Below the pieces are notes generated by a model. The model was not told where the DNA came from and searched no databases. It saw only the letters and a program-made list of their open reading frames with translations. A DNA stretch of 32,477 nucleotides from Jimgerdemannia flammicorona. Its lineage: Eukaryota. The stretch spans positions 1 through 32,477 of the forward strand of contig RBNJ01000345.1 of the NCBI GenBank assembly GCA_003990765.1, written 5' to 3'. Positions 2,000 through 11,995 of this stretch are shown piece by piece. The translations under genes were made by a program, and so were the position numbers. Numbering within the stretch: position 1 is the stretch's first letter; the number at the start of each line of letters is the position of its first letter.

Positions 2000-2399
2000 A
2001 AATAACTGCTATTTATAAGGCTATACTATATTTGTGAATCAGATTTAGATACTATAATCAAATATCTATTCTTCTGATTCTTGTTCCTAATTTGGATCAA
2101 CTATCACAATATATATCTAAATTTAGAAGTCAAGAAATAGAGAGAAGTAGAGTAAATATATCTGATTTATTTCAAAAGTATTGTTTTATTTTAGTATGAG
2201 TAAAATTGCTATCAGTAATATTACTCACAAATTGTATATCTAAATGATCATCTGATCATATATCCAAATTAAATCAAGCTACTTAAAAAATTATAACCAA
2301 TGTTAAATATCAGTCTTTTTTTTTATTTTCATAGTAAGAATATAGTATAAATAAAACAAAAATAAAATCTATATATATAAGTAAGTAAAGAGATATTCT

Positions 2400-3280
2400 T
2401 TACATTTGTTTCTTTATTTTTTAATATAAAAATATGCTTCTTACTAATACTTAAGCATTCTCAAAACTTAGTATCTCTTTCATTACTAGTATTATTAAGA
2501 TAAAATTACTATACTCTGATCTCTAAGTAGTGTTTAACTCTATGATATCACTAATATCATAAGATCTGGACAGAGATAAGCTACCTTCTTCTCTATTCTC
2601 TCCTCCTCTTTCTTCTCTGCTATCTCTCTCAGATCCTCTAATAGAGCTCTATCATTACTGAGTCCAAAAAGCAACATCTATATTTGTATCTTGAGTGCTA
2701 AGTAAAAAGCCAATCTTGAGTAGCAAAAGGAACTCTTATACTACAGACTGATCAAAGTAATAAGTAATTTCTTAAATCTTTTATAATATATATAGATATA
2801 GAATATAATACAAGTCTGAATTCTCTCTAATAATATGAGATCCTCTCTAATAATATAGAATTCTCTCTAGCAATCTAAATAGTATAAATTTTTTTCAATA
2901 ATATAAGTAATATGAATTCTCTCTAACAGTAATATGAGTAGAAATCCTCTCAGTATATAGATATAATACTTATTTATTATTATATATAATATTATTTTTC
3001 TAATAAAAAATATGAAAACTTTTAACTTATTTATTTTTTCTCAATACTATACTGATTCTTATCTAAAAATCCATTTTAATACTCAAATTATATATTAAAT
3101 ATTATTAGATTATACTTACTTAGAGAGATTATCTCTATTGATTTATCTTTAATCTCTTTAGTTATATATATCTTTCAACTAGAATTAAAATTATAGTTCT
3201 CTCAACAGATGATACCTCTGATGATTCCAAAGAACTTATAGAAGACCTTATAATCATCAATACTGTTTTCATTTGTCAGC
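2400..3280 (-). pseudogene. Heavily decayed, probably intron-containing gene remnant of unknown (TE-associated?) family
   Basis: Minus-strand stretch LTNENSIDDYKVFYKFFGIIRGIIC*ENYNFNSS*KIYITKEIKDKSIEIISL ends at a GTAAGT donor (~3119) and is followed by a TTTTTAG acceptor (~3063). Stops are consistent with C-to-T decay. Family not recognised. Confidence 0.3.
2817..2955. repeat. Degenerate ~20-bp tandem repeat (GAATTCTCTCTAATAATA-like)
   Basis: Units at 2817, 2836, 2857 and 2913 share gaattctctcta/gatcctctcta. Confidence 0.55.
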
Positions 3281-3525
3281 TTTAAGATAGATAAGCAGGA
3301 TAGTATTAGTAGCTTAGAAAGCAGTAACAGTAAGTCCAAATAGAAGTCACACTGTTATAAGAGGTAATGAGTGATAGATATAATAATAAAATCAATAAAG
3401 ATAAGGATATACATATGTATCTAAATATAAGATAGAGTTTATTGATAGATAAGTTTATTTATTTGTTTATTTATTTATTTATTCATTTAAACTTTTTATT
3501 AACATATTTATTTTCTTTTTAAAAA

Positions 3526-4694
3526 AGAGTTATATATAATATAATTGTTACCAACTATTAACAAATAAGATATTGCAATCACTAGTTCTTTTTCTGTATT
3601 CTGCTTAAGTATAAAATCAGAACTATATCACTAGTACTTCATGAAGATAGTTCTATATAAGATTTTAGAGTATACAATCATATCAGCAATCTGAGTATAA
3701 GATGAGATATACTAATGTAATAATAAGCTCAAAAATGTAGAATAGTTATTATAGTACATATAAACTTAGTTTTGCAATTAAGAAGAATTTTATCCAAATT
3801 ATTACAATCTATACTCAGTATTATTACTCATCTCTCTGATTCTACCTCTGGCTATTATATAATAAGAAGCTGCTATCTGTAAATTCTAACCACCTATGTT
3901 ATAAGATAAAACCACTATTGTATTATAAGTATTAAAGAAAGAACCACCATTAGTCTAATAATAGACTTGTTAAGATGGACTCAAAGCTCTCATATAATTA
4001 GTATGGATATTTATTTAGATATATAATAAGGAAGTTATATTAGCTCATGAAGACTAAGTGGAAGTCAATATCTATACTATTGATCCTGGTGTTCAAATCT
4101 TTCTAACATAGTACTCACTTATATAAAGTCATGGTTACTTTGGTTAAAATGATATCTAGTATAGAATCTAGCTACTACTTGTCCTTAATGATCTCATATA
4201 ATATATCTGCCAGATATCTGTATAACAATAAGACAAGTTCTGTCATATATAAGCATATATACTAATGGATATATAATCTGATTAATGAGGTCCATAAGAA
4301 AGCAGTATTGTGGCTCCTGAGAATGTTTGATGTAGTGATTATCCCTTGGTTCAACTCATATTCTATGGCTGAAAAAAAGAAGAAAAAGTTGAACAGATAT
4401 ATGGTACAGAAGATTCTAATATAGAGTTATGGGCACTTCCTCAACTGGCTACTCAGCAAGGCCAAGGAGCTGGGTAAAAAGGTTGTGATTGTATCTGAGG
4501 CATATATATCAAAGACCTGTAGTGCATGTGGGTGGATCAATCACAGCCTGGGTAGTCAAAAGGTTTTCCAATACTGGGATTGCAAATGAGTAGTAGATAT
4601 AGTACCTGAGGAATCTTTCTTTGGGGAATTTTGTTCCTCAAGGAGAGGTCTTTGGGCTTTGCTTGATGAAGCTGCACATAAGTGTACGGGGTGA
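3526..4694 (+). pseudogene. tnpB: Fanzor2 (eukaryotic TnpB-like RNA-guided RuvC nuclease), pseudogenised
   Basis: RVIYN (3526), RuvC-I IDPGVQIFLT (DPG 4082-4090), NLINEVHKKAVLWLLRMFDVVIIP, VIVSEAYISKTCSACG (E 4497, CxxC 4518-4529), KVFQY..C and decayed (N)STxGIFLW/ALLD corresponding to NGARGIFLRALLD. Many stops and small indels. Confidence 0.9.
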
Positions 4695-4764
4695 AAATCA
4701 TATGTTTAGCTAGTTGACTAGTGTTGATTAGTGATAGCTAGTGGTGATCGCTCAGAGCCATCCG
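3526..4764 (+). mobile_element. Fanzor2 / IS607-type TnpB element remnant 1 (5'-truncated, right end preserved)
   Basis: Contains a decayed Fanzor ORF, and its 3' end is homologous to the end of the second element (11428-11502). No TnpA recognised upstream. Confidence 0.85.
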
Positions 4765-4785
4765 ATAATGATCATTTGGTTAAGA
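4673..4785 (+). ncRNA. Putative 3' part of Fanzor omegaRNA scaffold plus flank-derived guide (element 1)
   Basis: Hairpin TGCAC-ATAA-GTGTA (4673-4686), a 31-nt block (4711-4741) and CCATCCG (4758-4764) are shared with element 2. TnpB/Fanzor omegaRNAs come from the element right end, with the guide taken from flanking DNA. The 5' boundary of the RNA cannot be placed. Confidence 0.45.
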
Positions 4786-4862
4786 AATACCATGACAACA
4801 GAGAAAAAAAAGCTATGAAAAGAGAGTTTTTTTTTTTTAAAAAAAGGGATAATAGAACATAC

Positions 4863-5695: not shown

Positions 5696-8882
<3,187 letters not shown>

Positions 8883-9138
8883 ACAATTTTTGGGGAGGGT
8901 AAGGTTAACATAGAACAAAAGTGTAAGTATGGAGCTTAGATTGTACCGTACTGATCTTGAAGAAATGTCTTTTTCTTTGTTCATTGGCATGAATTTCTTG
9001 AAATAAAAAGCTCTTTCCGTTGCTCGAGATTTATACTGTGGTGGCTTAGCATTGCGATTTCTGTTGCCGTATGATGTCACCCACAGCACGCAACCGTAAA
9101 CAGTGGACCTCTACCCCAAACCCTCCGGAAACACCGAA

Positions 9139-11162
9139 ATGTCCTTGCTTGCAACCCGAGAACGCCGCCCAAATGCCGGTAGTCGGTGAGCCCCGTCGTG
9201 TTAAATTGCCTTGGTTCACCACGCCGAGTTCACTTGAGCACATTGACGAACATTCCGCCCTCATGGTTGCAGAATGCGAGCCTTGCTCGAGGAGGAGCTA
9301 GAGGTGGAGGAGCTGTTTCAAGAGGTGGACGATGATGTCGAATTTGAGGTGCAAGGTATAATTTTACGTCTCTTGAGGGCATTTGACTGTTCGCGAAGGA
9401 AAATTGGCTCACCACGGTCATTAACCCATTCGTACAGGTGAGGACGAAGATATCGTCGATTCTGACTTTGACGTGAGCTCTGGAGATGAAGAGGCGGGCA
9501 AAGAAGCTGAAGGCGCGGCTGAAGATCAAGCCATCCATGTGGAGGAGAAAAAGGTGCGTAAATCGCGGTAGAGTGTTCATTATACATATGTCAGTCCCTA
9601 AAAATTCATTTTCCTTTCTACCAGAAACGCAAAGTAGTAGTGCCTGTAATAAAGAAGCGGCCGCTTCCAAAACGCCGGACGCAACCAGAGGCGCCCTCGT
9701 CAACGACAACTTCTATCCCAACATCGTCGTCGATGTCCACGCCAGCAAAAAGGCAAAGAACAGAAAGACCATCAGTAGCTCCTACAAGTGAGTCAGTTTT
9801 TTTTAAATATATATATTAAAATCGAGGAGTTTGTTCCTTTGCTGTGGGCTCGGCATATTCAGCTTGCCACCTCTATTGCCCGATTCTACAAAAGCCACTC
9901 CTGCCACACGCAAGTCTTCTCGCGCCACAACCGTCAAGAACCGTGAATGGGTCGAGGAGCAACTGAAAGAGTATGAAATCAAGAGGGTAACTTTTGTTCC
10001 GAGTACGATCTAAAATTGATTTTCTGGCTATTCCCGAATGTCGATTGTGTTATATCTCTCGACCATTATTTCTAAACAGGCCGCCCAACCCAAACGTGAC
10101 CGACCTACAATTCGGGCGCTCACACAACAAGAGCTCCTCGCCGAAGCTGCAATCACGGAGGAGCAAAACAAGGCGTCCCTCGAAACATGGCAACAAATGG
10201 AAGCCGACCGGATGCAAAAGGCCAAAAAGAAAACCGACACGGGCATTATCGGCCCCTTCGTCCGGTTCTACTCGTTCATGGATGGCGACGAATCCAAACG
10301 GCCAAAGGGACGCAAGGCATTGGTGATCGAATATAAGCCCGGCACGGGCAATGTGGTCAGACAGATTGAAGATGAGAAGGTGAAGCAGTGGATAGCGATG
10401 CAGGAGGCCGAGGAATGCGACGTCGTTGGGCGGAACCTGGTCAGCTTCGAAGGTTACGATGGCGACGAGGCCGACGACGGGGGACGTAGTGGCGGGGCGG
10501 CGTACGACGGGAACGGCGGCGGCGTGCATAGGGGAGAGAACGACCTAGATGAGGAAGATCTCGAAACCGCGGACTTGATCCCAATGCTTAAGAACTGGAT
10601 CGAGCGGCCTGCGCGACCGCGGAAACCGCTCATGTGCCCGATTACGGGGCTCCCTGCTCGGTACAAGGACCCCAAGACGGGCGTCCCTTACGCGAACAAA
10701 GATGCCTACCAGATCATCCAGCAGATTGTGGGGCAAGAGTTCGTATGGTCAAGCGTGCTCGGGGCCTACGTGCAGAGCGAGAACCAACAGTTGCCGCGGG
10801 GTGCGCCGGAGGGCTGGGCGAGAGCTGGGGCAGGGAAGGTGGTGGATGAGGAGGATTGGCCTGAAGGTGAGGGAGATGATGTGCCAGGGTGGTTGAGGGA
10901 GAAGAGGAGGATGGAGCGGGAGGCCAAGGATCAGAAAGAGAAGGAGCGGGTGAAGGAAAAGGACACGAAACGGTCAAGGAGTGAGGGTGAGGAGGTTGGG
11001 AAGAAAGATGGGGAAGGAGAGCAGCCGGATAACGGGAAACGCGAAGAGTCGGGCAAGGTTGAGGGTTCTGCAGGGGACGGATTAAACAAGAAGATAATCG
11101 AGGGAAGAGAGAGCAGGAGGAGGGGCTTGCGGAATAGCGTTACGATTATTGTACAGGAGTAA
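9139..11162 (+). CDS. VPS72: Vps72/YL1 (SWR1/SRCAP H2A.Z-deposition subunit), 6 exons
   Basis: Exons 9139-9185, 9273-9355, 9438-9553, 9625-9787, ~9895-9986, 10080-11162. Motifs: RERRPNAGSRMRALL, DIVDSDFD, RKSSRATTV, LTQQELLAEAAITEEQN, and YL1-C CPITGLPARYKDPKTGVPYA. Confidence 0.93.
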
Positions 11163-11407
11163 AGATACGGTGGCAGGCCACCTCAGCTATGTGTTTGTCA
11201 ATACATTCTATAGATACACGAGCTCGCGTATTGGGCTTTTCTACATACGACTTTTACATGCAATCGATTTGCTGTGATTGGGTTTGTTTGTGTCCATCTC
11301 CAAGTTTGCGATTGGTCGTGGCATCTGCGATTGAACGGCAAGTTTGTTCCAACCAAAGACAAATCGTATATATGCCACCCTCACCAAATCTACATCCAAA
11401 TATTTTT

Positions 11408-11502
11408 AAGCCACCAAAATTCCTTAGCGGATGGGTTGAATCGGCCAACTATCGCTACACAACACTATGTAACTATAGTCAGCAAATTGGCACAGTTGTG
11501 CC
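11408..11502 (-). ncRNA. Putative 3' part of Fanzor omegaRNA scaffold plus flank-derived guide (element 2)
   Basis: Minus strand reads GGCAC-AACT-GTGCC hairpin (11502-11489), a 31-nt block (11475-11445, 23/31 identical to 4711-4741), then CCATCCG (11434-11428). Confidence 0.45.
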
Positions 11503-11995
11503 CTTAAACTGAAGTCATAACCACAGCCCCATCAAGCAATGTCTGGATAAATATCCCACAAGCTCTGTTTATATCTCTTGTTGATAACGAGATTGTAGCC
11601 ACCACATTTGAGTGCTGAGATTATACTTGTACATATTATAGAAAAGAATAGATTAGTTTTTTAAAAAGATAATATTATATCTTAATCATTTTATAGCTGC
11701 TATAGATTTTACTGATACATATATGATTCTGATATTGATATAATCACTATCTTGTTATGCTCTTTCTCTTTATATTTGAGATACTTATATATAAAACCTC
11801 ATATACTTATATTATTATCTAACATACTGTTTAGTTATTGAGCCTTCTCTTTATATAATATCAAGATATCATCAATTTACTATATATTATTATTCAATGT
11901 TATCCATATACCTCTCTCCACTACAATTTACATTATACAAACTTTTAACAATACTTTTGACATAGTTTTTAAAGTAAAGGTAATAATAATATAGC
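11428..11995 (-). pseudogene. tnpB: Fanzor2/TnpB element 2, C-terminal segment and right end
   Basis: Minus-strand translation: KRRLNN*TVC*III*VY (KRRLN.TVRQMMTWAH), KIVIISISESY..SKIYSSY (SE.YTSKTCSSC), KCGGYNLVIN.. and NRACGIFIQTLLDGAVVMTSV* (NGARGIFIRALLDG). Stop at 11506-11504. Confidence 0.85.

Follow-up and report, generated by a model that had tools for sequence, protein, structure and literature searches.

Two stretches of a 32,477-nucleotide window of Jimgerdemannia flammicorona DNA ("the window" below denotes this whole stretch) are very probably the right ends of dead IS607-type transposons with genes for TnpA and Fanzor2, in which the right end would have served both as DNA carrying TnpA sites and as omegaRNA. 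Transposons of this kind are known, and the protein clade already figures in published Fanzor tables. Both window copies are pseudogenes, and what gives these fossils their interest is a scaffold that is well supported, a target motif that can be predicted and a relative that is apparently intact.

An earlier note on this DNA had described, in both right ends, a GCAC-N4-GTGY motif (4674-4685; 11501-11490), a 31-nt block of short repeats (4711-4741 on the plus strand; 11475-11445 on the minus strand) that is identical at 23 of 31 positions, and the heptamer CCATCCG (4758-4764; 11434-11428). All were found in place, and the flanks start as quoted there. The block match is not reached by any of 2000 dinucleotide shuffles (best shuffle 22), and the local alignment of the two right ends scores 105.5, above all 500 shuffles (maximum 97.5). 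The assignment to IS607-type elements with Fanzor2 in a fungal host is upheld by the TnpA and Fanzor2 remnants, by the domains of the relative L279 and by a Mucoromycota-like host gene. The two divergent Fanzor families of the earlier note are both Fanzor2, but they are rather subfamilies of one clade, of which the genome holds at least nine (our own grouping), and this common descent explains why the two elements are alike at the right end. The conserved module, formerly taken to start at 4673, begins at about 4604, some 70 nt further upstream.

Elements, boundaries and target bias

The elements, their gene remnants and their flanks are located as follows.
2279..4764, plus strand: element 1, a full-length decayed IS607/Fanzor2 transposon of 2486 bp, subfamily A; left end placed by comparison with 24 genomic left ends, right end by genome matches
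2279..2325, plus strand: left end of element 1, aligned by eye; core CCG decayed to CTA (2279-2281), followed by partly deleted subterminal repeats
2434..3411, plus strand: remnant of the TnpA serine recombinase gene, two exons, intron end at 3108, many stops, one deletion
3107..4666, plus strand: Fanzor2 remnant, in a different frame from TnpA where the two overlap; with DPG (4082), the shifted Glu (4497) and a zinc finger
4758..4764, plus strand: terminus CCATCCG of element 1; predicted 3' strand of the pseudoknot at 4758-4762, putative CG core dinucleotide at 4763-4764
4765..4785, plus strand: host flank, would-be guide of element 1 as judged from the boundary; no fixed base follows the end
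11504..11869, minus strand: element 2, subfamily D; what is left is the decayed 3' part of a Fanzor2 gene, whose zinc finger seems to be interrupted by an intron
11407..11427, minus strand: host flank, would-be guide of element 2; sister ends diverge after CCATCCG

Element 1 aligns in blocks with the relatives L279 and L287 at 64-74% nucleotide identity; for L279 the range is 66-74% over four blocks. With the L279 TnpA as query, tblastn recovers 2502-2738 (E 2.5e-6) and 3109-3411 (E 1.7e-17), remnants that give no Pfam match even in frame; the L279 Fanzor matches element 1 with E 3e-63 and 2.5e-12, and the Fanzor2 remnant of element 1 matches PF07282 with E 3.9e-10. DPG and Glu are retained, and an alignment of copies places a deletion of the RuvC-III Arg-Asp (RD) codons near 4598. 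Because of this deletion, the many stops and the survival of only 3 of 98 aligned CpG relative to L279, element 1 is dead. Element 2, which retains its RuvC-III RD, is 75% identical to the copy L032 over 11869-11443, and blastx leads to RALLDGA-type proteins (E 0.003); its 46-aa piece has no Pfam match. It is traceable to about 11869, and its 5' part, left end and TnpA were not found; a search with the left end of L101, a copy of the same type, matched only itself.

The right boundary was defined by a search of the genome with 4500-4800, where query position 265 corresponds to 4764. The 42 matches comprise 41 besides the window itself, and 27 of these stop at query 261-269 (13 exactly at 265), 14 earlier and none later. 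CCATCCG is therefore the element terminus, as had been proposed, and in the alignment of genomic right ends, a check suggested at the time, conservation drops at 4764. For the right end of element 2 a DNA search gave two further genomic matches and a pattern search three more; the sister ends L032, L033 and L101-L103 diverge past CCATCCG. Matches to the zinc-finger/RuvC-III region number 92 by protein search and 70 by Pfam search. Among the pooled fetched loci, 56 distinct right ends carry CCATCCG or its C>T/G>A form, followed by A in 15, T in 22, C in 11 and G in eight. Since these ends were picked by the motif, with copies such as L005 and L014 that lack it falling outside the count, only the free flank, and not the conservation of the motif, counts as independent evidence. 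In a tenth subfamily, GTAGGCGT takes the place of this terminus (16 pattern matches, all 16 with T). Sixteen genomic copies (L180-L195) form a separate Fanzor2-like family ending in GTAGGCGT, in which an upstream loop GCCTAC is complementary to the terminal GTAGGC.

At the left side, 31 matches led to 30 fetched loci, of which 24 have a recognisable terminus CCG-CTCAAAAAATCG and six were dropped as too decayed or truncated. The core reads CCG in 19 loci, CTG in two, CCA in two and GCG in one, and the left end of the window copy resembles CCG-CTCAAAAAATCG of its sisters after C>T and G>A changes. A left end at CG-AATTTG, drawn from five copies, was rejected, as the 30 loci show conservation 33 nt further, to CCG-CTCA. 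In four elements with both ends (L036, L038, L101, L279) the junctions share CCG only; the ends CCG-CTCA and CCATCCG lack terminal inverted repeats and target duplications and have CG or CCG as the core, not the usual GG. The architecture of Fanzor1/Fanzor2* transposons, with terminal inverted repeats, target duplication and no IS607 TnpA, is thus not seen here, and a pseudoknot is predicted, unlike in Fanzor1. The recombination core is probably CG, the last two bases of the terminus, because bacterial relatives end NNATC-GG in the register in which the fungal clade ends CCATC-CG.

Exact 7-mers shared by left and right ends number five in subfamily A, as opposed to 0.32 in shuffles (p 0.002); they are borderline in L218 (p 0.05) and not above chance in L219, L223, L234 and L279. 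A search for an empty site led to L447, in which the left flank recurs; what follows it resembles the right flank no more than shuffled sequence does (p 0.75, 0.52). A 175-bp non-autonomous element consisting of a left and a right end only, with A-CCG in front, lies at L101:1350-1524 (G000:C941). Positions 717-1147 of the window hold a tandem array of 14-bp (7+7) units of the GATTCGGATT type, and similar arrays interrupt the left ends of L091, L092, L094 and L095.

The left-end flanks also point to a target motif, which the earlier note had proposed to derive from them. The base before the left core is A in 18 of the 24 ends, G in five, C in one and T in none, while the background frequency of T before CCG in the flanks is 27% (p ~5e-4); the right end of the element itself reads TCCG. 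As target and end are both CCG and T is excluded before it, an RCCG target (TAM) that would spare the element's own TCCG end is suggested. Alternatively, the TAM may be CCG only and the purine bias a preference of TnpA for insertion, self-cutting being avoided otherwise, e.g. by CG methylation or by TnpA sitting on the end. This reading, which we judge rather unlikely, draws on the 5'-CCG TAM of NlovFz2 (PMC10432273), on ApmFz2, which reads only 3 nt (PMC11832414), on CboTnpA, which alone prefers TGGG (10.1101/2023.11.20.567912), and on the almost CpG-free host repeats. On the other hand, the NlovFz2 scaffold ends GCG and not CCG (supplement of PMC10432273), so that NlovFz2 tells self apart at the third base, which is identical here; and most right ends still have an intact terminal CG, which was hence not reliably methylated and lost.

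To return to the RCCG motif, no targets of the two would-be guides beside RCCG occur in the fetched loci. Right flanks have a normal CpG content (median o/e 1.02; 50 of 55 above 0.5), in contrast to 0.007 for the repeats of the window, so that a CG core would largely restrict insertions to DNA that is not decayed.

Predicted omegaRNA fold and its conservation

Both right ends are predicted to fold more stably than shuffled sequence, with z -4.95 for 4603-4764 and z -4.01 for 11428-11575 (0/200 shuffles each); profile folds of the subfamilies range from z -0.6 to -6.3. The predicted common plan starts with stem-loop 1, goes on with a small hairpin (3 bp, loop of 6 nt), stem-loop 2, which varies, and stem-loop 3, which is long, and ends in CCATCCG; the hairpin loop GATGG is complementary to the terminal CCATC, which would give a 5-bp pseudoknot of the TnpB type.
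4604..4657, plus strand: stem-loop 1, a long G-U-rich hairpin over the last codons, predicted in the window copy and in subfamily profiles
4661..4672, plus strand: 3-bp hairpin whose 6-nt loop would pair with the terminal CCATC; covariation; one pair broken by G>A at 4669 in the window copy
4673..4686, plus strand: predicted stem-loop 2 (GCAC tetraloop hairpin), pair probabilities 0.98-1.0
4689..4753, plus strand: predicted stem-loop 3, holding GACTAG-type repeats with a period of about 10 bp that also occur in the left end
11428..11575, minus strand: predicted omegaRNA scaffold of element 2, with pseudoknot hairpin at 11537-11526, stem-loop 2 from 11525, stem-loop 3 at 11488-11439 and terminus at 11434-11428

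The small hairpin at 4661-4672 (11537-11526 in element 2), absent from the earlier note, is the best conserved upstream piece. The GCAC hairpin, which that note regarded as common to both elements and expected to be conserved or to covary, is real in element 1 and is exchanged for different hairpins in other subfamilies, e.g. a 7-bp stem with a GCGA loop in subfamily B. In element 2 the window copy is predicted to fold a short GCAC hairpin; since both sister copies, L032 and L033, use GCAC as the 3' arm of a longer one, homology of the two GCAC hairpins was judged unlikely and their match is probably due to chance. The short repeats, earlier interpreted as TnpA sites and/or scaffold, form stem-loop 3 of the predicted RNA and in the family of element 1 recur at the left end, in line with both roles.

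Covariation is seen for the small hairpin together with the pseudoknot. Across 21 genomic sequences, two pairs of the small stem are compensatory, while the pseudoknot helix shows no two-sided change; because the latter is almost invariant within the fungal clade, its covariation support comes from distant relatives. The anchoring protein motif is carried by 77 of 225 fetched loci, and the ends of 47 loci were fixed, in a hand-guided manner, from the divergence of sister copies and snapped to the nearest CG/GG within a few bases. The nine loop/terminus types obtained from the relatives form 42 of 45 Watson-Crick pairs (shuffle mean 31.8). In a MAFFT alignment of 26 chosen sequences, including both window ends, 97.1% of 208 cells are paired (slid controls 31-52%), five of eight pairs show two-sided changes (49 such changes) and the covariation score is reached by none of 500 shuffles, a statistic inflated by the relatedness of the rows. 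A putative third core dinucleotide may be hinted at by L284, a prokaryote-like relative known from a single copy with a putative end, where the loop GTTTC matches the terminal GGAAC, followed by AG.

An omegaRNA with a pseudoknot to its last scaffold bases is the structure modelled for these right ends; no Rfam family matches, apart from one chance match (snR39, E 0.17) in five loci. Palindromic or repeated TnpA sites fold by themselves, and one may ask whether conservation of the module serves only the DNA (TnpA binding, core) and the encoded protein, the folds being by-products and guide RNA no longer in use. Such a case can be built on the repeats common to left and right ends in subfamily A, on a hairpin motif that encodes ALLDGA in several subfamilies, on the scarcity of two-sided changes within the genome (RNAalifold finds them in only 2/37 and 2/29 pairs, and on 13 copies it retains stem-loop 1 with one-sided changes only), and on the element ends having lost fewer CpG than the interiors, which can mimic constraint. 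The hairpin motif, however, is kept out of the protein frame in subfamilies A-C and outside the ORF in G1-G3, which argues for constraint on the RNA; stems are replaced at the same place by different stems rich in G-U pairs, loop and terminus covary across relatives, and intact relatives keep all three RuvC residues. Conservation as DNA and protein alone is therefore quite improbable. As to subfamilies G1-G3 (L139, L153, L161, L167-L169, L241, L242), the start of the scaffold is duplicated, so that the whole predicted omegaRNA is found outside the reading frame, 130-240 nt 3' of the RD motif.

Apparently intact relatives, host context and transcripts

Among 80 metagenome loci, the contig L279 carries an apparently intact element of 2718 bp (159-2876) with CCG at both ends. 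Removal of three predicted GT-AG introns of 55-62 nt leaves an open TnpA of 253 aa and a Fanzor2 of 607 aa in overlapping frames. The former has the MerR (PF00376, E 1.2e-7) and Resolvase (PF00239, E 3.7e-8) domains of an IS607 TnpA; the latter has HTH_OrfB_IS605 (PF12323, E 1.1e-7), DPG, the shifted Glu, a C4 zinc finger and RD, and the same set of Fanzor2 features (DPG, shifted Glu, zinc finger, RD) is found in alignment A4. As L279 is apparently intact, the resurrection of a consensus protein, recommended earlier, is not needed. In L279, and also in L287, TnpA and the N-terminal extension of Fanzor2 share more than 200 codons in different frames, with one intron common to both. Many metagenome relatives are adjoined by TnpA matches. 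In subfamily E an open 240-aa RuvC frame has ApmFz2 (PDB 9b0l) as its sole PDB match (E 1.4e-7) and a chytrid protein as its best homologue (51%). A quick tree gives the CCATCCG clade 85% SH-aLRT and places L280 outside, and for these reasons it was not used as proof.

Two spliced host genes, LETM1-like and Vps72-like, sit between elements 1 and 2, and the Vps72-like protein has its best named homologues in Mucoromycota; the location of these Fanzor2 genes is eukaryotic. The gene island at 5800-11200 has a CpG o/e of 1.0, and the nested repeats at 12000-32477 one of 0.007; fragments in the latter region resemble what we take to be retrotransposon pol and a dUTPase-like frame.

The RNA evidence consists of contigs from four of five listed runs, two of which show spliced host transcripts (X3 and X4, with small shares, were left out of the habitat inference). 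Loose contig ends begin exactly behind 4764 in both spliced-transcript runs, and the interiors of both window elements have little or no contig cover in X1-X3, which is not informative on expression. A contig matching 4690-4764 reaches depths of 918 and 3835 in two runs, compared with 98-216 for neighbouring host genes, and has the diagnostic letters of copy L026 instead of those of the window copy. Relative to the host genes nearby, contigs with L026 letters have 4-39 times the depth in two runs. This copy also has an inverted-repeat mini-element of ~65 bp in the loop of stem-loop 2 (L026:1501-1660, G000:C401). That the host has kept the right-end RNA of some copies as an expressed RNA, as this depth might suggest, is quite improbable, since L026, whose Fanzor gene is broken, lies about 400 nt from an ABC-transporter gene and tail to tail with it, so that read-through from the 3' end of that gene on the opposite strand suffices, and the contigs carry no strand, start or level.

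Working model and known systems

The favoured reading, a right end with a double role in an IS607-type element, can be put in terms of a living copy, in which the last ~125-170 nt would act as both DNA and RNA. As DNA, the short direct repeats would bind TnpA, and TnpA would excise and insert the element by exchange over the CG core, with no target duplication beyond the shared CCG. Once produced as RNA, the same bases would fold into an omegaRNA scaffold of three stem-loops plus the 5-bp pseudoknot GATGG/CCATC, with a guide starting right after CG. The guide start directly behind CCATCCG, as formerly proposed, agrees with the boundary; in dead copies the presumed guide is mere flanking DNA. 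Fanzor2 might then cut the empty donor site beside RCCG, whereupon repair would restore the element (homing), while its own right junction, TCCG, would escape cutting.

As a tentative extension, to which we give somewhat less than even weight, an early-fungal IS607/Fanzor2 clade may have switched its core from GG to CG and acquired a four-base RCCG TAM, with self recognised by the T at the fourth position. As host repeats have lost nearly all CpG, such a CG core would direct the element to DNA rich in genes, and both enzymes may be controlled by CpG methylation. Members that are intact, L279 for one, would obtain TnpA and Fanzor2 from overlapping frames of a single spliced stretch and should need no repair to be active. 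With the predicted scaffold, guide start and RCCG motif and with the apparently intact relative, a whole eukaryotic IS607 system (recombinase, nuclease, RNA and both ends) becomes directly testable; this extends to the question, left open in PMC3673617, of whether elements of this kind really transpose in a nucleus through TnpA.

Several components have precedents in print, namely Fanzor2 in IS607 elements (PMC3627910), eukaryotic IS607 elements, those of fungi included (PMC3673617), introns in Fanzors (PMC10530073), the pseudoknot of ApmFz2 (PMC11832414) and the CCG TAM of NlovFz2 (PMC10432273). The Fanzor2s characterised in the literature searched are from mimivirus, Naegleria and molluscs, and nowhere in that literature are a guide RNA and a target motif mapped for a fungal Fanzor2 of the IS607 type. 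The searched supplement of PMC10711439 contains neither CCATCCG nor the hairpin motif, and CCATCCG is absent from the searched supplements of PMC10530073. The papers and supplements searched mention neither the CCATCCG end nor its fold or the target bias, though an earlier description may exist.

With respect to mechanism, the IS607 TnpA binds helically spaced end motifs (PMC6188088); it cuts the element out scarlessly as a circle and inserts it at a matching dinucleotide, while TnpB and the right-end RNA cut the empty site and promote copying back (10.1101/2023.11.20.567912). A close parallel is provided by ISXfa1 and the pro-Fanzor IS607 elements (10.1101/2023.08.09.552727; PMC10711439), which combine a TnpA serine recombinase with a TnpB-type nuclease. 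In their reRNA, too, there are three stem-loops, one of which holds TnpA repeats, and the bases in front of the guide take part in a pseudoknot; the scaffold includes the core, and the target motif is not identical to the element's own end; in ISXfa1 the TAM is GGG and the end CGG, and the pseudoknot is needed (10.1101/2023.08.09.552727). In the present clade, by contrast, the core is probably CG and not GG, the base that tells self from target would be the fourth (T vs purine) and not the third, both genes contain predicted spliceosomal introns, and the host is a fungus.

RALLDGA-type fungal Fanzors, e.g. those of Cetraspora (CAG8580437.1) and Diversispora (RHZ87106.1) in Table S5 of PMC10711439 and 15 matches in Data S1 of PMC10530073, belong to the same protein clade by their C-terminal motif; some rows include TnpA sequence, but they are listed as proteins. 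NlovFz2 of Naegleria lovaniensis (PMC10432273) is also a Fanzor2 whose TAM is CCG and whose scaffold has CG as its last two bases, but its scaffold sequence, which terminates in GGCG, is unlike these ends. ApmFz2 of Acanthamoeba polyphaga mimivirus (PDB 9b0l; PMC11832414) resembles the present elements as a Fanzor2 in an IS607 element with a pseudoknot at -4 to 0, whereas it is viral, has a GGG TAM and a 205-nt scaffold, and falls outside this clade in the weakly supported tree.
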